Assembly: GCA_037440445.1 (NCBI GenBank)
Contig: JBBIUA010000010.1
Span: forward strand, 13,734 to 77,733
DNA from: Ignavibacteria bacterium
Lineage (GTDB): Bacteria; Bacteroidota; Ignavibacteria; Kapaibacteriales; UBA2268
Reading direction: 5' to 3'
DNA: 64,000 bases
Numbering within the stretch: the stretch's first letter is position 1; each line of letters opens with the position of its first letter. The notes under the pieces were generated by a model. The model saw only the letters and a program-made list of their open reading frames with translations, was not told the origin of the DNA and ran no database searches. Positions 27,991 to 39,276 of this stretch are shown here, in pieces. The position numbers and the translations under genes were made by a program.

Positions 27991-28028
27991 AAATACCCAC
28001 CCTTTCTGGGGTGGGTTTTCTATTTTTT
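27991..28028. terminator. Intrinsic terminator hairpin after gdhA (probably bidirectional)
   Basis: acccaccc (27995-28002) pairs with gggtgggt (28009-28016), followed by a T-rich run; lies between convergent genes. Confidence 0.8.
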
Positions 28029-30192
28029 AAATCTTTAATGGTTGCGATTCAAGTAGAATTTGCCACTTTACTTCTGTTGAGAAACTACGATAAATTACTT
28101 TCTTGTTAGGTATCTTCAACCCATATTGAGGAGAATAATAACTATCCTCAATTTCTATGTTGGAATCCGGAAAGATAATACAAATTTCAACATTATTATT
28201 TCTTAAATAAACAAAGTTACTGTGTATCGAAGCCTCGACACTTGGATAAAGGTTTATGGTTATTAGCTTTTCGCCATATAATTCTAACTGTTCGACAAAT
28301 TCTAATCGATTTAATTCAAAAAGTATTTGGCGGCGACAAGGTTTACCATATGCAAAATGTTCCGCAATTATTTTCTTTTCATCAAGCAAAACTAATCGTG
28401 ATTGTGTCCTATGTTTGTAAATCCAAAACAAATCATCGGCATTTGTTGTCTTCCATAAATTTTGTTCAGTTTTGTTCCAGACAATTGTACTATGCATCAG
28501 AACAGAACGAAACTTGTTTCTTTCTTCTATTGAACAAGTATAGCAAAATGTTCCTGAATCAACAACAAAATCTTTACCAAAAACAAACAAGGTAAAAGAA
28601 AGCTGGTCGTTATGGGAATGTCCACCCTTCCCGTTCTGCCCTATATCGCCACACCGAAATGTAAAATAGTAGTAGGAAGATTTAGCAATGCATAATCCAA
28701 AATTCTGATAATAAAGTATTTTTGGTAAAACATAAATTTTTTCTTTTGGTAAACTTAATCTGGTATAATTTGTTTTTGCAAAAAAGATTCTTGACTTTCC
28801 TGATTCGAAATCATTTCCAGAAACTAAATTTACTAAGTGAAAAAAATGTTGCCTTTTCAATACATTATCGTAACATTCATTGTAATGCTCAAAAGAATCG
28901 AAGAAGAAATTCAAACGAAGGAAATAACCACTGTCGGTATCTCCTATTTGTTCAATTTCTTCATTTGGTTTTCTTAGTGCATATGAAAACTCGACTATTT
29001 TCCTGACAAGATTTTGGAATTCATCAGGAAAAATAATTTGTAAATTTTCTTTGTCTATTTGAAATTTTTGTGAATTCGATTTTCTAAGTTTTCTTGAAAA
29101 ATTCCATCCATTTACTTCATAGTCCAATAAAGATTCAACTTTTTTCTTATTCAAACTTAAAAGTAACAACAAAGAAAAGAACAACATTTCAGCAGTTTGA
29201 AAATGATAATAAGTTGAGCATTCGAAATTTCCACCATCGGGAAAAAATTGATATAAAGTTTCTTGGACTAATTCTTGCAAAGAAAAAGCAAGAATTTGCG
29301 ATGTAAAATTGGATTGGGGTAAATAAGCACCAGAAAAAACCAAAGCAGAAATATTCGCAAAATAATGATTTCCCCGAAGACCTTCGGACCATTCAAGATT
29401 GTTCAAAAGAAAAAGAATGTGCCTGTAAATGCTTTCGAGAAAGAGAGTTTTAAAAATTGAGTCAAATACAATATTACAACTACAAAACAAATCATAAGAT
29501 ACCAGCCAGTTAACCAGCCTAATACCAACATCCATTGACGAACGCCATTGAACTGTGTAACCAACGGGGTTTGTTGCAATAAAATTTAAAATTTGATTTT
29601 CAAATTCATTCAAACAACTAATAGCAAATTCAGGTTCAGTTTCTTGAAAAAGTCTAAAGGCATAAACTAAAATTGGCAAATACTGCATCCTACCCAATTC
29701 CCAAGGGTATTTGATATCGTTACCAATTGCTATTCTAATTTCTTTATAAAATTTGGGGAACCAAGTAAAGGAAGTTACTGGATTCGACCAAAAATCTATT
29801 ATTTTATAATTCTGTTGCTCTAAATCTTCAAGAATAATTTTTGCAAAAGGTTGCCAAAAATCGGGAAGTCTATCAATTATTACCTTTGGCGAAAATTTTG
29901 AATTCCAAGAAACCCAGCCAGTTCCAAGTAAATTAAAATTATGTTCAATTATCTGCTTTGCGATTCTCCGAATTTTATCTTTGTTTTCTTCCAAAAAACT
30001 AGTATCTTGAATAGCAAAATATCCTGTTTCTATATCTGTAAACCATTCGGGAATTTTCGAAAAGATTATCTCCCCAAGTATTTTTTCACGTTTTTTATTG
30101 TTTCGTTTATATAGAATCCTACTTGCAATTTTTTGAATTGCAATGCGTAATGGTAACCGTCTTAATTTCCAAATTTCACCAAAATCGAACAT
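28027..30192 (-). CDS. Heparinase II/III-like protein
   Basis: DIKYPWELGR, GNHYFAN, DGGNFECSTYYH, IGDTDSG, GHSHNDQLSF, VDSGTFCY. Confidence 0.85.
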   Translation of the reverse strand: MFDFGEIWKLRRLPLRIAIQKIASRILYKRNNKKREKILGEIIFSKIPEWFTDIETGYFAIQDTSFLEENKDKIRRIAKQIIEHNFNLLGTGWVSWNSKFSPKVIIDRLPDFWQPFAKIILEDLEQQNYKIIDFWSNPVTSFTWFPKFYKEIRIAIGNDIKYPWELGRMQYLPILVYAFRLFQETEPEFAISCLNEFENQILNFIATNPVGYTVQWRSSMDVGIRLVNWLVSYDLFCSCNIVFDSIFKTLFLESIYRHILFLLNNLEWSEGLRGNHYFANISALVFSGAYLPQSNFTSQILAFSLQELVQETLYQFFPDGGNFECSTYYHFQTAEMLFFSLLLLLSLNKKKVESLLDYEVNGWNFSRKLRKSNSQKFQIDKENLQIIFPDEFQNLVRKIVEFSYALRKPNEEIEQIGDTDSGYFLRLNFFFDSFEHYNECYDNVLKRQHFFHLVNLVSGNDFESGKSRIFFAKTNYTRLSLPKEKIYVLPKILYYQNFGLCIAKSSYYYFTFRCGDIGQNGKGGHSHNDQLSFTLFVFGKDFVVDSGTFCYTCSIEERNKFRSVLMHSTIVWNKTEQNLWKTTNADDLFWIYKHRTQSRLVLLDEKKIIAEHFAYGKPCRRQILFELNRLEFVEQLELYGEKLITINLYPSVEASIHSNFVYLRNNNVEICIIFPDSNIEIEDSYYSPQYGLKIPNKKVIYRSFSTEVKWQILLESQPLKI

Positions 30193-31446
30193 CTATCGAT
30201 AAAGCAAGTACTTTGAACGAATTTTAAGGAAATCATTTAAACCCCTGTTCAAGTATGATTTGAATGAGTCTTCATCATTCTGAAGAAGGTAATCAAATAA
30301 CTTATCAGTACCAGTAACTTTTTTAAACATATTCACAGCAGAAGACTTTAAATTTTTTTCCTGAAATAACTCTGGAAAATTTTTCTTCAATTCAAAAAGT
30401 AATATCATACCATAAGAGTATAGTTTTATATCTTTATTTTTATCGAACATAACCAAAAACCCTTTATCGGTATGTTTCAAATTGTGGAAATTCGATTTGT
30501 TATCAATTTTACGAAATTCTACTCCATCGAATTTTAAATTCAATAGCACTTTTTTAATTTTATTAAAATTTACTTTTGGGATAGAAATATACTGAAAAGG
30601 CATATTACTCCCAATGCCAAGATAAATAAGTTTCAATTCCCCAATGACTCCAAACATTGCCAGGCCACGAATTGAGTTTGGCGAAGTAACATTAGGAGAT
30701 GTTGCAACCCATTCCAATCCAGTATCTTCCCAGTTCATATTTCGCTTCCAATTTTCCATTCTCACGACTGTAAGTTTGCATTTTTTAGGGGTACTATTCA
30801 TCCCCAACCAACCCTCTTCGTTCATCATTATTGCAAGTTCGCCAATAGTACACCCGTGAATATAAGGAATGGGAACTATTCCTACAAACGAGGTTTTATC
30901 TAACTCCAATACATTTCCATCGACTAAATTTCCCCCCAAAGGGTTAGGTCTATCCAGAATCACTACTGGAAGTCCGGCTTCGGAAGCTGCTAACATTACA
31001 TAGAATAAAGTGCTAATAAATGTATATGAGCGAATCCCTATATCTTGCAAATCGACAACAATAATATCAATTAAAGACAATCGATAAGGAGTAGGTTTTC
31101 GATTGTTCCCATAAAGCGAGAAAACAGGAACGCCATATAAACTATCGTCGGGTACATATTTCCCTGCCGGAATAGTTGCATAAAACCCATGTTCAGGTGT
31201 GAAAATTGCTTTTAATGTAAAATTTGGATTGTTAATAAAATATTCAACTGTCAATTTTTGCTCGGAACTTCTACTTGCAGAGTTTGTTAAAAGCCCAATT
31301 CTTTTACCTAAAAGAATATCATAATTATTTTGTATTAGAACATCAATTCCAAGAAGAAGTTTACCATTTTTCGAAGAATTAGCTAAAGCGAAAAATATTG
31401 AGAAAAAACAACAACAAATAATTATAAAAAACTTTCGAAAATGCAT
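30193..31446 (-). CDS. namZ: Exo-beta-N-acetylmuramidase NamZ/DUF1343 family
   Basis: GLLTN, FTPEHG, SLYG, DLQDIGIRSYTF, LDRPNPLGG, HGCTIGELA, TSPN; start adjusted to ATG 31446. Confidence 0.88.
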   Translation of the reverse strand: MHFRKFFIIICCCFFSIFFALANSSKNGKLLLGIDVLIQNNYDILLGKRIGLLTNSASRSSEQKLTVEYFINNPNFTLKAIFTPEHGFYATIPAGKYVPDDSLYGVPVFSLYGNNRKPTPYRLSLIDIIVVDLQDIGIRSYTFISTLFYVMLAASEAGLPVVILDRPNPLGGNLVDGNVLELDKTSFVGIVPIPYIHGCTIGELAIMMNEEGWLGMNSTPKKCKLTVVRMENWKRNMNWEDTGLEWVATSPNVTSPNSIRGLAMFGVIGELKLIYLGIGSNMPFQYISIPKVNFNKIKKVLLNLKFDGVEFRKIDNKSNFHNLKHTDKGFLVMFDKNKDIKLYSYGMILLFELKKNFPELFQEKNLKSSAVNMFKKVTGTDKLFDYLLQNDEDSFKSYLNRGLNDFLKIRSKYLLYR

Positions 31447-31483
31447 TCGATTTTCAACATTTAAAAAATTCAAATTTAAGAAA

Positions 31484-32671
31484 CTAACGGGAATAGGGAG
31501 TTTGAAGGTACTTTCGGGCTTGTTCGTGGGAATCTCGAAAATTCTTCCAAGATAGAACTTTTTGATATTGCATTATTGCATATTTTCTTTTACCTTGAAG
31601 GTCGAAAATTTTGCCTATTTTCAAATTCAAATATATCATAAATGCCGAAGGTCCTTCCTTATCGAGTTTTCTGGACAATTCATCGCATTTATAAAAATAC
31701 GATAATGCTTCTTCGTACTGTTCTTTCTCCATCAGAGCACTACCAATATAATACAATGCCTCCCGAGCAGTTAGTAAATCATAACCAGGTTTCTTTTGGA
31801 TAAACCAATCCAAAATCTTTTTCCAATGTTCATACCATTCTTCAAGATAATACAAAGATACTAAACAACGTCCAAGATAACGCTGAAAAACAGGATTATT
31901 TGGATAACGGTCAACAAGGTCGCGAGCAATTTCAATCGCGGACAAAAAGTCTTTTTCGAAATCATAAAAGATTTGCAACAAAACAAACTTGGCTTCAGTC
32001 GAGGCATATCGGGCATACTTGCTCGAAGCCTGCAATTGCAAAATTCCAAGTTTTTTGTCACCTTTATGAACAAAAAGCATCAAAGGTTTAATTACTGGAT
32101 ATTGCTCCGGTAAAACCTTGGCAAAGTAATTATAAATCCCAGTTCCAAGCATAATGTCGTAATTATTTGGTGCAATTTCAAGACATTTTAATAGAATTTT
32201 GTAAGCAGCATAACCGTCGGTTGCTGCACGGAACCAATTCTCGCGAACTACAAAAAATCTTCCCCGATATCCCAAAGCCCCACCTTTAAAAAACAAGGCG
32301 CTTAGTTCAAATTCATTTGTATCAAGTATTTTATCGCAAAGGTCAATTACTTTTTGAATCTTGTCGAGAAACGATAAGTCATAATCGCGAGAATTACGAT
32401 AAACTGCAATTTTCCACCAATCCACCATTGCATTCAAAAAATAACCCGCAGGAAGCCCAGGATACCGATTAATAACCTCGCGAAAGCAATCCTCCGCTTT
32501 ATCGAACTCCAGGTTATAAATATAGTCGCTACCAAGCCTAACAAGGCTGTCGGCATCAGTCCTCATCGAAGGCCACTGGCTTTGGGATTTATAATGAAGG
32601 AATAGGAAAATAAATATTAATATGAGGAACCTCAGGTAATTATCTTTAAAGAACTTAAGCAATTTGGACAT
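31484..32671 (-). CDS. Exported TPR-repeat protein
   Basis: N-terminal signal/anchor; multiple TPR-like helices; LGTGIYNY motif. Confidence 0.75.
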   Translation of the reverse strand: MSKLLKFFKDNYLRFLILIFIFLFLHYKSQSQWPSMRTDADSLVRLGSDYIYNLEFDKAEDCFREVINRYPGLPAGYFLNAMVDWWKIAVYRNSRDYDLSFLDKIQKVIDLCDKILDTNEFELSALFFKGGALGYRGRFFVVRENWFRAATDGYAAYKILLKCLEIAPNNYDIMLGTGIYNYFAKVLPEQYPVIKPLMLFVHKGDKKLGILQLQASSKYARYASTEAKFVLLQIFYDFEKDFLSAIEIARDLVDRYPNNPVFQRYLGRCLVSLYYLEEWYEHWKKILDWFIQKKPGYDLLTAREALYYIGSALMEKEQYEEALSYFYKCDELSRKLDKEGPSAFMIYLNLKIGKIFDLQGKRKYAIMQYQKVLSWKNFRDSHEQARKYLQTPYSR

Positions 32672-33675
32672 TTTGCTCCATCCTTTTCAACTTTGTAATT
32701 GACCTTTGTAAAATATCTTTGACGTTCAACAACGAGAAAATTACAAATGGGACAGTAAGTATTTTCCACATCAGGAATGTCTGTATTTCCTATGTAAACA
32801 AAATTTAATCCATAAGATTTTGCAATTTCGCGAGCACGAATCAATGTGGAATATGGGGTGGGTGGTTTGTTTGTCATTTTGTAGTGTGGATAAAATCTGC
32901 TAAAGTGCAATGGAATATCTTTTGAAACTGAAGAAATAAATTTTGAAATTTGCTCAAAACATATATCAGTGTCATTTTCACCTGGAATAACTAAATTAAT
33001 GACCTCAATATGAATTCCCATTGAAAACACTCGCTCAATATTTTCAAGAACTGGTTTTAAATGTCCCCCAGTAATCTTTAAATATTTTTGATCGTCAAAA
33101 AATTTTAAATCAATATTTATTGCATCAAGAAGATTTTCCTCTTGAACAATTTTTAGCATTTCTGGTGTGAAGTATCCGTTAGAAACGAAAATATGGAATA
33201 AATTCTTTGTATTGTCATTACGCCGACAAATGTTTATGATATCCCTAGCATATTCAAAAAATATTGTCGGTTCGGAATATGTGTAGGATATCCCATCTAC
33301 TTTGTATCCTTCTGCGATTTTAACTATTTCAATAGGAGAAACTACTCTACTATTCAATAAATTTTCAGGTTTAAGTTTAATTGATTGCGAAAGGTAACTA
33401 TTTTGGCAGTTAGCACATTTAAAATTGCAACCAGGAGTTCCAAAAGAAAGTACCCTAGTTTTTGGTTTAAAATGAAAAAAAGGTTTTTTTTCTATTGGAT
33501 CAATCGCAACGCCGTCGACTTTGCCATAAGTATAGGAAAAAAGTTTACCTCCTTTATTGAAGCGAACCCTGCATATACCACCATATCCATCTTTAATTTT
33601 GCAATAATGACTGCAGAGATAGCATTTAACAGTATTATCATCTACTTTTTCATAAAGATTAGCTTCAACCATCAC
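32632..33675 (-). CDS. amrS: AmmeMemoRadiSam system radical SAM enzyme
   Basis: N-terminal CYLCSHYC..GICRVR, DPIEKKPFFHF, CxxxCxxC (GCNFKCANCQN), YTYSEP, HFSRFYP, VYIGN, C-terminal CPIC/CPNC. Confidence 0.93.
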   Translation of the reverse strand: MMVEANLYEKVDDNTVKCYLCSHYCKIKDGYGGICRVRFNKGGKLFSYTYGKVDGVAIDPIEKKPFFHFKPKTRVLSFGTPGCNFKCANCQNSYLSQSIKLKPENLLNSRVVSPIEIVKIAEGYKVDGISYTYSEPTIFFEYARDIINICRRNDNTKNLFHIFVSNGYFTPEMLKIVQEENLLDAINIDLKFFDDQKYLKITGGHLKPVLENIERVFSMGIHIEVINLVIPGENDTDICFEQISKFISSVSKDIPLHFSRFYPHYKMTNKPPTPYSTLIRAREIAKSYGLNFVYIGNTDIPDVENTYCPICNFLVVERQRYFTKVNYKVEKDGAKCPNCLSSLKIIT

Positions 33676-33681
33676 AAAATA

Positions 33682-34458
33682 CTACAATAAATCCAAAGTT
33701 TTCATATCAGATTCAAAGTTCGAAGGTTTAATCTTGATTAACCAACCCTCGCCATACGGGTCTTGCAAAGCAATATCTGGATTTTTTAAAACAGCGTTGT
33801 TAACTTCCACAACTGTTCCACTTAAAGGAGAAAGAATGGCTTGAGTTCTTAGATCGGAAGAGAAAATCTGAAAGTAAACACTTCCCTGTCTTACTTCGTC
33901 CCCAACCGAGGGTAAATAAATTGTTTGAATCTTACCGAAAGAAAACAAAAGGGCTCTTTCTACCCCAAGAACAACAAGACCCTCGTCGTTCATCATCATC
34001 CAAGAGTATTGCCCAACCCCTTTAATGTTGCTAATAATTTCATTCTGGAAAGGCACTTTAATGTTGTTTGGAACAAGAGACTGAACAAGAGCTGCCGCAC
34101 GCTCGATCACACGCCGAAGTTCCTCACGGGTAAAAGGTTTAGCAATATAATCGAATGCTCCTAATTGCATTGCTTGTAAAGCAGTATTTATCGTGGCATA
34201 GCCAGTAATCATAATAACCAAAATTTTTTTATCAAATTCTTTAACTTTTCGTAAAAACTCTAAACCATCCATTTCGGGCATCATTAGATCGGTTAAAATT
34301 ATTTGTGGATGAATATTTTTCATTGATTCCAAAGCCTCGACAGCGGAAAGAGCAGTGTGAATTTCGAGGTTTTCTTCTTTCTTAAGTAATCTTTTTATAC
34401 TATCCAGAACAATTTGCTCATCATCAACTACAATTATTTTAACTTTTTCATTTTTCAT
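33682..34458 (-). CDS. Response regulator: REC domain fused to a glycine cleavage H-protein-like domain
   Basis: REC: VVDDE, TDLMMP, ITGY, AKPF. GcvH-like: LPSVGDEVRQG, SPLSGTVVEVN, DPYGEGWLIKIKP. Confidence 0.88.
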   Translation of the reverse strand: MKNEKVKIIVVDDEQIVLDSIKRLLKKEENLEIHTALSAVEALESMKNIHPQIILTDLMMPEMDGLEFLRKVKEFDKKILVIMITGYATINTALQAMQLGAFDYIAKPFTREELRRVIERAAALVQSLVPNNIKVPFQNEIISNIKGVGQYSWMMMNDEGLVVLGVERALLFSFGKIQTIYLPSVGDEVRQGSVYFQIFSSDLRTQAILSPLSGTVVEVNNAVLKNPDIALQDPYGEGWLIKIKPSNFESDMKTLDLL

Positions 34459-34466
34459 TTATATGA

Positions 34467-36296
34467 TTAATTTTGTGAAACTTCTTGTTCGAAAAATGCA
34501 GGTAAAACTATTTTAAATACTGCCCCACCCGATGGAGCCGTATCAACTTCAATTGTTCCATGATGTCGTTCAACAATTCCCCACGATACTGCAAGCCCCA
34601 GACCGCTTGTACTTTTTGTAGAAAAAAACGGCTCGAAAATTTTGTCCATTAGATTTTCGGGGATTCCTGGTCCAGTATCTTCAACTGAAATAATACATTT
34701 CTTTTGTTGACGGTAATATTCACTCGATATAGTAATACTACCCTTGTGTTTCATAGCTTCTGCTGCGTTAATCAAAAAGTTTAAAATAACTTGTTGGATT
34801 TGCTTAGAATCGGCTTTAATTTTTGGTATCTTTTCATCTAAGTAAACCTTGAATTCAATATCTTTAAATTGTGGCAATCGATGAACCAAATCAAGAGCCT
34901 GCTTAATAATTACATTTGGGTCGACAGTTTCAAAGCGTGGGGTATATTGTTTTGCAAAATCAAGTAAATTGCGAACAATATCTCTGCATCGAAGTGTTTC
35001 CCTGATTATAACTTTTATATCCTCTTGAAGTGGGTCATCGTTTTCAAGTTCTTCTGAGATACTTTCAGCAAAGGACAAAATACCTGTCAAAGGATTATTA
35101 ATTTCGTGCGCAACTCCAGCAGCAAGTTTACCCAAGGCAGCAAGTTTCTCACTTTGAATCAACTTTTCCATTAGTTGGATTTCGTTGGTTGCATCCCTAC
35201 CAATCGTGCAAGTTCCTATAATCTTTCCACTATAATCTGTCAAAGGAAACCGAAGCATACGAAAATGATGTTCTTCACCATTAATATTAATGGATTCGTC
35301 GTACATACGAGGTTTCCCAGTACGCAAAACTTCGGAATCGTGTAATCTAACAGTCTTGGCAATATTCGAAGGAAGCACTTCCTCGGGAGTTTTCCCGATA
35401 AAATCCTCGGGTTTTAAATTGAAGGCTTTAGCAATTACAGGATTTACTAAAATATATTGACCATTTAAATTTTTCATACTTATCCAATCCTGGGCATTAT
35501 TAATAAAACTTTTCAACTTTTGCTCAAGACTTTCTACCTCTCTTTTCAAGTAAACTAATTCAGTAATTCTATGCCAATTCGAAAGAATGTATCGAACATT
35601 ACCTTTTGAATCAAAAATTGGGGCACGAGTGACTTCCCAATAGGTTTCGTTTGGTGGGGGGGTTGTATGAATCATAATATGTGGTTTTTTTGTTTCGCAG
35701 ATGTAACTAATAATTTCTAGTAATCCATTTTTGTCGCAATTTATTTCGGCAATTTCAAGAACTTGGTAACATTTTTGTCCAATTATTTTACTTTCTTCAG
35801 TTCCAATAAATTCGCAAAATGCTTTGTTTGCTCTAGTTATTGTTTGGTCTAAACTCATTACTACTGTTAAATCCTGAAAACTATCGAAAATGGATTTCAA
35901 GAAGAAATTATCATCTTCTACAATTCTTTCAAGAGTTTCAAGTGTATGGATCTTTTTGTCAAGTTCTTCGTAAGCAAACATTAAATCCCAGAAAATGTGG
36001 GCTATAGTATGCTCAATAAGTTTAATCTCTGGATTTAGTTCTTCTTTCAATTTCTTAACAAAGGCATCGTCTCCGGTAAGTTCAATTACAACTTCAATTC
36101 CCGGAAGTTCTAATGCTTTACGATAATCCTCGAATACCATTAAACCAAGTTCTTTTGCATAAAGGGCTCCTTCGGCATTTGGGTTAATATCGACTACGGC
36201 AATGACTTCTATGTTTAATTCTTTGATATGTCTCTCTTGAATGAGTTTTAGAATAGCATAACAGCCTTTTCCACCACCAATAATTATCGCTTTCAT
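34467..36296 (-). CDS. Cytoplasmic histidine kinase: Rossmann-like N-domain, two PAS domains, HisKA/HATPase (NtrB-like)
   Basis: IIIGGGKG..VVDINP; two PAS regions; AHEINNPL, NAAEA, DTGPGI, FEPFFSTK, GLGLA; no TM segment. Confidence 0.9.
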   Translation of the reverse strand: MKAIIIGGGKGCYAILKLIQERHIKELNIEVIAVVDINPNAEGALYAKELGLMVFEDYRKALELPGIEVVIELTGDDAFVKKLKEELNPEIKLIEHTIAHIFWDLMFAYEELDKKIHTLETLERIVEDDNFFLKSIFDSFQDLTVVMSLDQTITRANKAFCEFIGTEESKIIGQKCYQVLEIAEINCDKNGLLEIISYICETKKPHIMIHTTPPPNETYWEVTRAPIFDSKGNVRYILSNWHRITELVYLKREVESLEQKLKSFINNAQDWISMKNLNGQYILVNPVIAKAFNLKPEDFIGKTPEEVLPSNIAKTVRLHDSEVLRTGKPRMYDESININGEEHHFRMLRFPLTDYSGKIIGTCTIGRDATNEIQLMEKLIQSEKLAALGKLAAGVAHEINNPLTGILSFAESISEELENDDPLQEDIKVIIRETLRCRDIVRNLLDFAKQYTPRFETVDPNVIIKQALDLVHRLPQFKDIEFKVYLDEKIPKIKADSKQIQQVILNFLINAAEAMKHKGSITISSEYYRQQKKCIISVEDTGPGIPENLMDKIFEPFFSTKSTSGLGLAVSWGIVERHHGTIEVDTAPSGGAVFKIVLPAFFEQEVSQN

Positions 36297-37297
36297 TGTT
36301 TTGCCTTTTCCATTTCATTAACATTATTCAAAGGGAATTCTTTATCGAGCATCTCGGAATAATCTTCGATAAACTCATCCAGGCTTCCATAATATGAAAT
36401 TGGCTTTATCGTAAAATGAAGAAGTATTTTCGACAATTTTATTGGAATATAAGGATATAACTTTGCTAAATTCATAATTCGATAATTATAAAAAGCCGAA
36501 GCATCCTCTGGTGTTAAACTATTTTTTACTTCCGTTGGAAATTCATTTCCTTTGATAACTTGGTCGAATGTCTTTAGTCCTTTTGCTACTGCATACGAAA
36601 CAATGTTACCACAACTCCAGAGGTCAAAATCCGAGACATCCTGCATCAAATCAAAATCAATCCATCGATAATTTCCAGTTTCTGTCTCGACAATAATGTG
36701 GTCGTTGCGAATATCACCATGACAAAATTTATTTTTATGTAAAAACTGAATGGCTTTAAATGAATCGAGTAGTTTCCACAAAATCTTTGGCAAATCTTCA
36801 TAAAAATACTCATGATGAGTTTTCCTATCCAGCATCGGAATATATTGAAAAAAGGATTTACCTCGAATATAATCTATAATGCGTACGGCATTTCCCTTTT
36901 CATCGTAGCAAATAAAACCTTGCATAAATCGGTTATCGCCACGAACTAAATTTAAAACTTCACCTTCCTTTTGAGGGTTTCGATAGCAACGAATTCGCAA
37001 GAAACCAATATGAACATAGAATTCCTCGTGAAAAACCATTTTTAGTATTTTTTCGCTACCATCTTTCAAATCAACTGCACTAAAAACCCAATACTTAGGT
37101 TGGTCATCGATTCCAAATCTCGGCTCACGCATATTTCCACGAATAAGATAATCTCCACAATTCAACCGTATAATATCCCCTCGATTTATCCGCATCCAGT
37201 CTGTAGTATCGGTTACTATATTTATCTTATATGGGTTGACTTTCCACCCAAGATATTGCTGAATTTTTTCCGCCAAAATCTCTTTATTGTTTTCCAT
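36293..37297 (-). CDS. Protein-kinase-like (PKL) fold enzyme, atypical
   Basis: Beta-3 Lys (KILKMVF), catalytic loop HGDIRNDHII, metal-binding IDFD, DLWSCG. Confidence 0.75.
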   Translation of the reverse strand: MENNKEILAEKIQQYLGWKVNPYKINIVTDTTDWMRINRGDIIRLNCGDYLIRGNMREPRFGIDDQPKYWVFSAVDLKDGSEKILKMVFHEEFYVHIGFLRIRCYRNPQKEGEVLNLVRGDNRFMQGFICYDEKGNAVRIIDYIRGKSFFQYIPMLDRKTHHEYFYEDLPKILWKLLDSFKAIQFLHKNKFCHGDIRNDHIIVETETGNYRWIDFDLMQDVSDFDLWSCGNIVSYAVAKGLKTFDQVIKGNEFPTEVKNSLTPEDASAFYNYRIMNLAKLYPYIPIKLSKILLHFTIKPISYYGSLDEFIEDYSEMLDKEFPLNNVNEMEKAKQ

Positions 37298-37658
37298 AGT
37301 TTAATTCACTAAAAACCAACTCTTGTTTATACTTTGGTAATTTTTTAACTACTTCTACATACGATTTTCTTATTAATTCATAAACAAAATCATTTGGGAT
37401 ATTGTCAACAAGTTCAACTGTCAACCAGTACTTTTTGTTTAAATGATAACCTGGTTGAATAAAATAATATTCGTCTTTTAATCGAATGGCTTCTTCTTGG
37501 GTTGCCTTCAAACTGACTTTCAATGGAACCGAAACTAAATCTACTAATAAAAACATCTTGTCCATAACTTTAAAGACGAGTGTCTCTTCGTCGAATGGGA
37601 AATTTTCTTCAACAAAAGGCAAACTAAAACAAAACTCACGAATATCCAACACATTCAT
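37284..37658 (-). CDS. MmcQ/YjbR family protein
   Basis: FCFSLP..EE.FPF, VFKVMDKMF, PGYHLNKKYW, SYVEV. Confidence 0.9.
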   Translation of the reverse strand: MNVLDIREFCFSLPFVEENFPFDEETLVFKVMDKMFLLVDLVSVPLKVSLKATQEEAIRLKDEYYFIQPGYHLNKKYWLTVELVDNIPNDFVYELIRKSYVEVVKKLPKYKQELVFSELNYGKQ

Positions 37659-37725: not shown

Positions 37726-39276
37726 ATGGTTATGCAAAATTCAATTTATCATTTTGGTGTCAAAAATCCAATTCAAATTCTGACAGATAAACCAAAAGAA
37801 GAGTTTACTCGCTCTGACTTTATTAAAATAATTAAACAAATGGAACTTGAAAGAATAACCCTCCATTATGTTGCAATTGACGGAAGATTAAGACAGATGC
37901 AAATTCCAATCCAAAGCATTTACCAAGTTGAAGCTATTTTATCCGACGGTGAAAGAGTTGATGGTTCTTCTTTATTCCAAGGTATTGTTCCAACAGGTAA
38001 ATCCGACCTTTACGTTGTTCCCCTTTATAAAACTGCATTTATTAACCCATATGACAAAAAAAGTTTAGATTTTATTTGTCGATTTTTCGATAACGAGGGA
38101 AATCCAGCTGACTACACACCGGATAATATTTTACACAAAGCCCACCAACTTCTCATTAATACTACTGGATTTGATTTAAAAGCACTTGGTGAACTTGAAT
38201 TCTATTTAATCTTTGACCAACCACGAAAAATGTATATGCTTCCAAAGCAAAGGGGATACCATGCAAGTCCACCTTTTGCAAAAACTACAGCAATCTTAAA
38301 TGAAATCGCCTCTTCAATTGCCGAACTTACTGGGTCGGTTAAGTATTGTCACAACGAAGTTGGTTACATCGAAAGTCTTCAAAGCGAAATCCCTGAGTTA
38401 AATGGCAAAACCGCGGAACAACTTGAAATTGAATTTCAACTTTCTGATATTGAAGACATTGCAAATTATTTAGTCATTTCCACTTGGATAATTCGAAATG
38501 CAGCTTATCAAAACAACTGTATTGCTTCATTTTTTCCAAAAATTGAACCTGGACACGCTGGCAATGGTTTGCATTTTCATTTAGCACTAACATCTAATAA
38601 CAAAAACATTATGGTCGATACTAACGGAGAACTTTCTAAAGAAGCCCTTATGCTCATTGGTGGGCTCTGTCATTATGCACCAAGCCTTACTGCCTTTGGC
38701 AATACAGTTATCGCATCTTATCTACGTTTAGTTCCAGGACAAGAGGCCCCAACAAAGGTCTGTTGGAGTTATTCTAACCGTCATTCACTAATCCGAATCC
38801 CTTTGGCTTGGAGCAAAACCAATAATCTTGCAATGAAAATCAATCCACAACAGAAAGAACCATTCCATTTTATTGAAAGTCGCCAAACCGTTGAGTTTCG
38901 AAGCCCAGATGGTAGTGCTTTCATACATCTTTTGCTCGCCGGGCTTGCTCTTGCAACTCAGTGGGGTTTGACAAATGGTGAACGCTCATTAGAAATTGCT
39001 CGAAAATATAATGTTTCGGAAGACCCTAATACCCTCCAAGAAAAAGACCTTGATACACTTAGCAGAAGTTGCGTCGAATCTGCTGAAAAACTCCTACTAA
39101 AACGGCACCATTACGAACGAGAAGGTATCTTCCCTAAAGAAGTTATCGATTATTATACTAACATTTTACTTGCCGAAAATGATAAGGACTTAAACCAAAG
39201 GTTGAATTCCTTACCCGAGGAGGAAAAAATAATAGAATCAAGAAGAATTATGCACAGAAATTTGCATCGATGTTAA
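37726..39276 (+). CDS. glnA: Glutamine synthetase family protein (GSI-like, Bacteroidota-type)
   Basis: ERVDGSSLF, GELEFY, HNEVG, EQLEIEF, GNGLHFH, RLVPGQEAP, NR..LIRIP, EFRSPDG. Confidence 0.85.
   Translation: MVMQNSIYHFGVKNPIQILTDKPKEEFTRSDFIKIIKQMELERITLHYVAIDGRLRQMQIPIQSIYQVEAILSDGERVDGSSLFQGIVPTGKSDLYVVPLYKTAFINPYDKKSLDFICRFFDNEGNPADYTPDNILHKAHQLLINTTGFDLKALGELEFYLIFDQPRKMYMLPKQRGYHASPPFAKTTAILNEIASSIAELTGSVKYCHNEVGYIESLQSEIPELNGKTAEQLEIEFQLSDIEDIANYLVISTWIIRNAAYQNNCIASFFPKIEPGHAGNGLHFHLALTSNNKNIMVDTNGELSKEALMLIGGLCHYAPSLTAFGNTVIASYLRLVPGQEAPTKVCWSYSNRHSLIRIPLAWSKTNNLAMKINPQQKEPFHFIESRQTVEFRSPDGSAFIHLLLAGLALATQWGLTNGERSLEIARKYNVSEDPNTLQEKDLDTLSRSCVESAEKLLLKRHHYEREGIFPKEVIDYYTNILLAENDKDLNQRLNSLPEEEKIIESRRIMHRNLHRC

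Follow-up and report, generated by a model that had tools for sequence, protein, structure and literature searches.

A conserved gene cassette joins a minimal Hanks-type kinase-like protein to a two-component pair in uncultured bacteria

A 64,000-nt stretch of the genome of an Ignavibacteria bacterium (GenBank assembly GCA_037440445.1, contig JBBIUA010000010.1, positions 13,734 to 77,733; hereafter the window) encodes a cassette of three genes. These specify a stripped-down protein-kinase-like protein (PKL), a soluble histidine kinase with a Rossmann-like N-terminal domain and two PAS domains (HK), and a response regulator (RRG) in which a receiver domain (REC) is joined to a barrel resembling GcvH, the glycine-cleavage H protein. 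The three genes stand next to each other on one strand in 50 of 80 related loci and co-occur in two distant groups of genomes; their catalytic and phospho-acceptor residues are intact, and the lipoyl lysine of the barrel is lost. A functional tie among PKL, HK and RRG is very likely, because the genes are linked, because copies that have become unlinked are retained, and because PKL and RRG co-occur across genomes. We propose, giving the proposal about an even chance of being right, that the three proteins form a self-contained cytoplasmic signalling cassette with a post-translational output, in which the signal would run from HK through RRG to PKL.

Architecture of the cassette

The original prediction, made from the sequence of this region, had described a run of six same-strand open reading frames, and all of their coordinates and junctions were reproduced; its domain calls, including a response regulator that has an H-protein-like output in place of a DNA-binding domain, were upheld by Pfam and NCBIfam scans. 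The members of the cassette and their domains are located in the window as follows.

36293-37297, minus strand: PKL, 334 aa, stripped-down Hanks-type protein-kinase-like protein, core cassette member
36698-36721, minus strand: PKL catalytic loop, H193-G-D-I-R-N-D-H200
36650-36658, minus strand: PKL D214-F-D216
34467-36296, minus strand: HK, 609 aa, soluble Rossmann-PAS-PAS histidine kinase, core cassette member
approximately 36012-36296, minus strand: HK Rossmann-like N-terminal domain
approximately 35181-35903, minus strand: two HK PAS domains (PAS_4 and PAS_9, Pfam)
approximately 34500-35135, minus strand: HK HisKA and HATPase_c domains (Pfam; 60.8 and 85.1 bits, respectively)
33682-34458, minus strand: RRG, 258 aa, response regulator with REC and GcvH-like parts, core cassette member
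approximately 34105-34437, minus strand: RRG REC domain (Response_reg, 106 bits)
approximately 33700-34011, minus strand: RRG GcvH-like barrel, residues 150-253 (GCV_H, PF01597; 70.7 bits against a cut-off of 22.2)
33853-33861, minus strand: RRG hairpin S200-S-D202, at the position of the lipoyl lysine in GcvH

The start of HK lies over the stop of PKL in a 4-nt ATGA overlap, read directly from the sequence, and the coordinates of HK and RRG leave a gap of 8 nt between them. No transmembrane or hydrophobic segment was found in PKL or HK by a hydropathy scan.

Conservation of the three-gene unit

One genome per species was scanned for relatives of PKL; these turned up in 378 stretches, and arrangements were counted in the 80 best loci. 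All open reading frames of these loci were searched with the proteins of the window, and the flanking genes were clustered. The database labels of the 80 loci are Kapaibacteria, Ignavibacteria, Zixibacteria and 'FCB group', together with many instances of 'uncultured Hyphomicrobiales', taken here as a labelling artefact. The loci fall into the following arrangements.

50 of 80 loci: PKL, HK and RRG adjacent in this order on one strand
8 of 80 loci: PKL followed by HK, then the contig end
1 of 80 loci: HK/RRG pair 4.4 kb downstream of PKL (L058)
1 of 80 loci: fragmented locus (L081)
16 of 80 loci: PKL with at least 2.7 kb of downstream sequence and without HK/RRG
4 of 80 loci: uninformative

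The gaps between PKL and HK are small, with a value of -4 (the ATGA overlap) in 10 loci. The recurrence of the same gene order in 50 of 80 loci indicates that the arrangement of the three core genes is not due to chance. A conserved neighbourhood of the kinase, the Rossmann-headed HK and the REC-GcvH regulator had been named as a check on the original prediction, and it is borne out by their linkage in these loci and by their co-occurrence in at least two phyla.

The genes that surround the triad are less constant. The YjbR, radical SAM, TPR and NamZ genes of the window occur near the triad only in its nine closest relatives (L003-L011; PKL identity of 75-93%), and clustering of the flanking genes across the 80 loci yielded no further family present in more than nine. 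The scanned flanking families (dockerin, TonB receptor, FeoB, SSB, porphobilinogen deaminase, PRTase, PLP enzyme, MCP, SDR and ABC ATPase) are unrelated housekeeping genes; outside the close relatives each is found in at most six of the 80 loci, except for the ABC ATPase, which is found in nine and does not adjoin the triad. The conserved unit is PKL, HK and RRG, and the radical SAM, TPR and YjbR genes are only local neighbours.

Linkage is complemented by co-occurrence. Where PKL stands alone, RRG is encoded elsewhere in five of the five genomes tested. These unlinked regulators, in frames of 262-269 aa, are 46-64% identical in the barrel; directly upstream of them lies a full HK in three genomes, a histidine kinase without the N-terminal domain in one, and nothing in one. 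Two larger samples gave the following counts, presented without a statistical test as the relatives are not independent.

41 relatives of the window genome: both PKL and RRG in 14, PKL only in 1 (G407), RRG only in 1 (G424, 89% complete), neither in 25
121 genomes from the phylum of G440 (labelled Zixiibacteriota): both in 18, PKL only in 1, RRG only in 1, neither in 101

The discordant genomes of the second sample are G512, which has PKL only, with the gene at a contig edge, and G534, which has RRG only. In all 18 Zixiibacteriota genomes with both genes, the two lie approximately 3 kb apart on the same contig. Other genomes of the same genus as the window carry PKL in nine of nine cases and RRG in eight of nine. 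Across the family, 5 of its 15 other genera have the cassette; the 16 genomes from other families of the order all lack it, and PKL was detected in one of 401 genomes in a sparse sample of the phylum, that one being the window's own. The pattern of co-occurrence is thus alike in two distant groups and the distribution is patchy, as expected of an accessory module. One genome of the same genus as the window, G410, carries PKL and RRG twice with identical scores (C16:20424-24033 and C23:23535-27144), which could be a duplication or redundancy of assembly or binning; its contamination is given as 5%.

These data also bear on the view that the three genes are merely inherited together, as a mobile or co-regulated unit in which PKL has no direct interplay with the pair, or in which PKL is a catalytically dead scaffold. 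Its patchiness within the family (5 of 15 other genera) would fit horizontal spread of a gene block, and PKL occurs without the pair in 16 of 76 informative loci as well as in all 80 loci of a more distant clade described below. Against this stand the five unlinked genomes, all of which keep both genes, and the near-perfect co-occurrence in two phyla. We consider co-inheritance without interplay, in either form, to be quite unlikely.

PKL is a probable minimal kinase

PKL matches the Pkinase family over residues 109-221 only and with 30.3 bits, just under the Pfam cut-off of 31.7. Its family is large and closely conserved: homologues number 1402 at E<=0.001 among 2174 candidates, and the 120th is still 57% identical. 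The AlphaFold2 model (predicted local distance difference test score (pLDDT) of 86) has a bilobal protein-kinase fold. The best structural match is Mycobacterium tuberculosis PknB (Z-score of 17.2 over 226 residues, at 3.8 Å), with which Foldseek agrees, and further matches include Staphylococcus aureus PknB (Z-score of 16.9), PknG (16.4), PKR (16.1) and YabT (16.0). Each of the 50 highest-ranking structural matches is a protein kinase.

Residues K86 and E111, the HGD.RNDH loop (D195) and the WIDFD motif (D214) are invariant among 30 sequences, and K86, E111, D195 and D214 persist in representatives with no more than 35-46% identity. Their roles as the β3 Lys, αC Glu, catalytic Asp and DFG Asp were assigned from the profile alignment and the secondary structure of the model. 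In a profile search of the Protein Data Bank (PDB), HGDIRNDH aligns with the HxDxKxxN motif of STK17A and titin kinase, and His200 occupies the Asn position. Six residues separate D214-F-D216 from D223, the αF Asp, a spacing that leaves the activation segment nearly absent and the APE motif missing. PKL contains no GxGxxG motif; between strands 48-55 and 71-76 there is instead an ExRFGIxxQPK loop, which is highly conserved and modelled with low confidence.

PKL therefore shares with Hanks-type kinases such as PknB, PknG and YabT the overall fold (Z-scores of 16-17 over approximately 225-230 residues) and the invariant equivalents of the β3 Lys, αC Glu, catalytic Asp and DFx Asp. It differs from them in having no Gly-rich loop, a catalytic loop of the form HGDxRxDH, almost no activation segment and no APE motif, and it is devoid of any sensor or transmembrane part. 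From sequence and model, PKL is read as a probably active, minimal Hanks-type kinase that would not be regulable through an activation loop of its own. The sub-threshold Pkinase score would suit a dead scaffold, whereas the invariance of the catalytic residues over 35-93% identity argues against one. In the ESM Atlas, PKL is nearest to clusters that are commonest in Thermodesulfobacteriota, a match that serves as a lead only.

RRG carries a lysine-less H-protein barrel

RRG has a two-part architecture, and the Pfam and NCBIfam scan detected Response_reg and GCV_H and no DNA-binding domain. In the REC domain, D12, D13, D57, T85 and K107 are invariant among 30 sequences, so that the predicted acidic pocket, phospho-acceptor Asp, Thr and Lys of a receiver are all present.

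The barrel was examined by aligning 51 RRG sequences with the window genome's own genuine GcvH, which has the motif ..EAVKT.. at the lipoylation site. The column of the lipoyl lysine is occupied by Asp in 51 of 51 RRGs, and the position two residues before it by Ser in 46 and Thr in 5. The Asp is followed by L, M or F and then mostly by Arg; next comes a single inserted residue, His in 34 sequences and Gln in 13. The barrel belongs to the same Pfam fold family as GcvH and the lipoyl domains, and a DPYGEGW motif near the C terminus is common to RRG and GcvH. RRG departs from GcvH in the Asp that replaces the lipoyl lysine, in the insertion after the hairpin, in its fusion to REC, and in scores that lie below the NCBIfam cut-offs for GcvH (67.4 against 117 for NF002270 and 61.9 against 115.85 for TIGR00527). 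The genuine, lysine-bearing GcvH of the window genome is encoded separately. As judged from the alignment, the RRG barrel has an H-protein fold yet is no H protein, and it is predicted to be unable to carry lipoate, because Asp replaces the lipoyl lysine in every sequence. For the barrel, the nearest clusters in the ESM Atlas are those of ordinary GcvH, with a value of just 0.79, again only a lead. A set of stand-alone 142-aa GCV_H proteins (P0217-P0233) is 35-41% identical to the RRG barrel.

The original prediction had taken the H-like domain to recruit PKL, or to be its substrate, in the control of a metabolic enzyme, in analogy to docking on lipoyl domains and to pyruvate dehydrogenase (PDH) kinase, in a circuit coupled to the radical SAM enzyme. 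Read in this way, the barrel would bring PKL to an enzyme of the 2-oxoacid dehydrogenase or glycine-cleavage type. The GCV_H fold speaks for the analogy. The lipoyl group does not, as Asp in the lysine column of all 51 sequences means that none could be presented, which removes the basis of docking on a lipoylated domain and weakens the comparison. For the coupling, the radical SAM gene lies a few bases 3' of RRG in the window and in eight of nine close relatives (L003-L010), it follows PKL in the ninth (L011), and a gene of the same family is found within 4 kb of PKL in 2 of the 80 metagenome loci of the distant clade. On the other side, 71 of the 80 genome loci lack the gene in their neighbourhood, it accompanies the triad together with the TPR and YjbR genes in nine loci only, all of them close relatives, and AMMECR1, the partner family of the radical SAM system, matches on another contig (C6) of the window genome. 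Among the scanned neighbours in the 80 loci, none that is conserved names a target enzyme or points to a metabolic one, and no dehydrogenase or glycine-cleavage gene is conserved nearby. The circuit is largely refuted in its radical SAM and lipoyl parts, and as a whole it appears highly improbable.

HK is a soluble histidine kinase with a Rossmann-like N-terminal domain

The H-box (HEINNPL) and the G-boxes (DTGPG and GLGL) of HK are conserved among 56 sequences. Within the first 95 residues, which form the N-terminal domain, G7-G8-G9, D36 and E72-L-T-G75 are invariant and G11 nearly so (28 sequences). Sequence matches of this region are faint: a GFO_IDH_MocA match in Pfam has an E-value of 0.0098, and profile matches to the PDB are weak (E 0.005-0.013). 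The model of the domain (pLDDT of 84) comprises a five-stranded arrangement of five β-α units followed by a long helix. It is structurally closest to the NAD-binding domain of the acylating acetaldehyde dehydrogenase DmpF (root mean square deviation of approximately 2.5 Å over approximately 102 residues with PDB entry 1nvm, 25% identity, Foldseek E-value of 3.5e-4), and the next matches are Gfo/Idh/MocA proteins, GAPDH and homoserine dehydrogenases. At the level of the model, the match to 1nvm and the invariant motifs confirm the NAD(P)-type Rossmann fold that had been predicted at the N terminus of HK, and dinucleotide sensing by this domain is a reasonable inference.

A relationship of the domain to the universal stress protein (Usp) that is the small partner of PKL in sister clades (see below) was considered and rejected (hhalign probability of 0.3%). 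In four loci labelled Zixibacteria (L036, L038, L045 and L062), HK is approximately 473-478 aa long rather than approximately 605 aa and, by score, has one PAS domain fewer.

PKL takes other partners in sister clades

The PKL family is compact: its cluster representatives number 595 at E<=0.001, of which 89 reach E<=1e-30. A further 80 metagenome loci were taken around a more distant PKL clade. In 57 of them (within L089-L168; for example, L167:4644-6244), the gene of a 150-aa Usp (PF00582) is the immediate same-strand neighbour of PKL, often overlapping it, downstream in 33 loci and upstream in 24. These kinases belong to the same family as the PKL of the window (35-46% identity, with HGDxRxDH and WIDFD kept), and their partner is Usp where the window cassette has HK and RRG. 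PKL-Usp is a second, unstudied pairing of this kinase with a partner. No Usp gene stands beside PKL in the window; the profile of the PKL-linked Usp has no match at E<=0.001 in the window genome (97.6% complete) and at most a marginal match in three other genomes with the triad.

Two proteins of the family join PKL to input domains: P0239 (467 aa, from a 234-kb contig) is a fusion of PKL to REC and is placed outside the triad clade but nearest to it, and P0385 (683 aa) combines PKL with rhodanese and cNMP-binding domains. The REC and cNMP fusions, together with the Usp genes in 57 of 80 sister loci, suggest that PKL acts as an effector whose regulatory partners vary. Residues of PKL that are conserved only in the HK/RRG-linked clade cluster at 217-228, 235-244 and 268-272, around the activation-segment stub and the C-lobe. 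Another candidate fusion, P0249 (379 aa), in which the first 200 PKL residues are joined to a histidine kinase core, is a single sequence in its cluster and was set aside as a probable artefact.

Model of signalling and its alternatives

In the proposed model, the NAD(P)-type Rossmann domain and the two PAS domains of HK would detect a signal from within the cell. HK would autophosphorylate on the H-box histidine and hand the phosphate to Asp57 of RRG, a transfer suggested by the adjacency of the two genes in 50 of 80 loci. The lysine-less barrel of RRG would work by binding a protein, and the genetically linked candidate is PKL. With almost no activation loop, PKL would depend on a partner in trans for its activation or inactivation, and it would serve as the catalytic effector by phosphorylating further targets. 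This order is favoured because RRG has no other output, because PKL is without a regulatory loop of its own, because relatives of PKL are fused to input domains, including a receiver, and because PKL takes another small partner in sister clades.

A more specific version places the contact at the repurposed swinging-arm hairpin of the barrel. The invariant [S/T]-x-D tip would enter the open cleft of the loop-less kinase as a substrate or pseudosubstrate, and phosphorylation of the receiver would decide whether the tip is exposed, so that the cassette would turn a His-Asp phosphorelay into Ser/Thr phosphorylation; in the sister kinases, Usp would have the corresponding role. We regard this version as speculative and unlikely.

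Control could also run in reverse. PKL would then be an input that phosphorylates RRG, for example at the Ser/Thr200 hairpin or in the receiver, or HK, adding a second signal to the two-component pathway, and the RRG barrel would have some other target. The linkage and co-occurrence data fit this scheme too. Position 200 is Ser or Thr and position 202 is Asp in 51 of 51 sequences, which would make the hairpin the obvious candidate site, and the small Usp of the sister clades could equally be a substrate of PKL. Phosphorylation of response regulators by Hanks-type kinases is moreover an established theme (PrkC-WalR, Stk1-CovR). However, the PKL-REC and PKL-cNMP-binding fusions put PKL downstream of input domains, and a Ser two residues before the lysine is common in genuine GcvH (the ESVK motif in Escherichia coli), so Ser200 may be structural. 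We rate reverse control as rather unlikely, yet as a serious rival.

Several observations weigh against signalling from HK through RRG to PKL. PKL lacks an adjoining HK/RRG pair in 16 of 76 informative loci, and the same-genus genome G407 keeps PKL without RRG; together these indicate that PKL can persist without the pair. Locus L011, from the same genus and probably from G407, has neither HK nor RRG, and the radical SAM gene follows PKL directly. This locus (L011:7989-10232) has the radical SAM gene after approximately 150 nt and is otherwise syntenic, and no RRG was found elsewhere in its genome at E<=1e-20; it suggests that the two-component pair was deleted naturally while the kinase stayed in place. 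In the distant clade, HK or RRG is found near PKL in none of the 80 loci, which implies that the basic activity of PKL is independent of them. In trees of the family (FastTree with 156 PKLs; IQ-TREE with 65, drawn at random as 32 of 79 and 33 of 77), a branch with an SH-aLRT support of 100 (unrooted) separates the PKLs of genomes with HK/RRG from the others, a split that may partly reflect sampling because the two clades come from different collections and queries. P0239 and P0385 are single sequences in single-member clusters. The Pkinase score below the cut-off and the His in place of the Mg-binding Asn of the catalytic loop leave the kinase activity of PKL short of proof. Finally, the case for NAD(H) binding by the N-terminal domain of HK consists of fold and motifs, and that for RRG-PKL binding and for the direction of control consists of gene context.

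Genomic surroundings

Upstream and downstream of the cassette, the remaining members of the six-gene run are the following.

37284-37658, minus strand: YjbR/MmcQ-family gene (PF04237, 82 bits), local neighbour outside the conserved cassette
32632-33675, minus strand: radical SAM enzyme of the AmmeMemoRadiSam system (AmrS; TIGR04337), local neighbour
31484-32671, minus strand: TPR protein with a hydrophobic N terminus (TPR families), local neighbour

By their coordinates, YjbR and PKL overlap by 14 nt, RRG and the radical SAM gene are separated by 6 nt, and the radical SAM and TPR genes overlap by 40 nt. The radical SAM enzyme scores 304.2 bits with TIGR04337 against a cut-off of 220, and the hydropathy of the TPR protein has a maximum of 1.72 at residues 7-25. 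The only AMMECR1 match of the window genome (L088, G000:C6:34517-35011) lies within a 503-aa open frame, in which it may be fused to a second AmmeMemoRadiSam component.

Beyond the YjbR gene, on the plus strand at 37726-39276, lies a divergent 516-aa glutamine-synthetase-like gene in which both glutamine synthetase domains are present and which scores 212.6 against the GlnA equivalog cut-off of 429. It adjoins the cassette in seven of nine close relatives and also in L019. On the 3' side of the TPR gene, 28027-31473 on the minus strand encodes a NamZ-type exo-β-N-acetylmuramidase and a heparinase II/III-like protein, both kept with the cassette in close relatives only. The sole strong terminator-like hairpin of the region, at 27995-28016 (nine pairs, six of them G-C, with a T-run on the plus strand), sits just beyond the heparinase II/III-like gene, leaving eight minus-strand genes, from YjbR to the heparinase-like gene, without a clear internal terminator. 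A scan of the same region gave 46 promoter-like sites against 47.2 expected, for a sigma-70 consensus that may not fit this organism, and 10 terminator-like sites against 7.5 expected.

Comparison with known systems and significance

Part of the cassette is familiar, namely a two-component pair and a Hanks-type kinase; what is new lies in the lysine-less H-protein output, in the soluble sensor with its Rossmann head and in the presence of the third gene. As in other two-component systems, HK has an intact H-box and N- and G-boxes, RRG has the REC pocket with its Thr and Lys, and the two genes are adjacent. Most studied response regulators act on DNA or carry a known enzyme, whereas RRG ends in a lysine-less H-protein barrel, an output that is not of the DNA-binding kind and is no known enzyme; HK is soluble with a Rossmann-like head, and the cassette adds a third conserved gene, that of the protein kinase.

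The meeting of a Ser/Thr-type kinase with a two-component pathway likewise recalls the cross-talk of Hanks-type kinases with response regulators (PrkC-WalR, Stk1-CovR/GraR). There, the regulator is a DNA-binding protein whose gene is not linked to that of the kinase, whereas here there is one conserved operon-like cassette and a regulator that does not bind DNA. A kinase is also paired with a lipoyl-fold domain when PDH kinase acts on the lipoyl domain of E2. PDH kinase, however, is of the GHKL type and recognizes the lipoylated lysine, while PKL is of the Hanks type and the lysine is absent.

The part of the literature that was covered, with subscription journals outside the search, contained no study of the PKL kinase family, of a REC-GcvH regulator or of a Usp-kinase gene pair of this kind, for which one unrelated review was found. 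By title and abstract, work on 'GcvH-like' proteins concerns lipoylated GcvH-L or LbpA.

Hundreds of uncultured species from two or more phyla carry the cassette. Gating of the kinase by the barrel, if it occurs, would hard-wire the two main phosphorylation systems of bacteria to each other and assign a function to an unstudied output domain. Were docking through the hairpin true, response regulators would gain a new output class, the kinase-gating barrel, and Hanks-type kinases a new mode of regulation. The Rossmann-headed soluble sensor would offer a possible direct read-out of the redox or nucleotide state of the cell, and as all three proteins are small and soluble, the idea is open to ordinary biochemistry.

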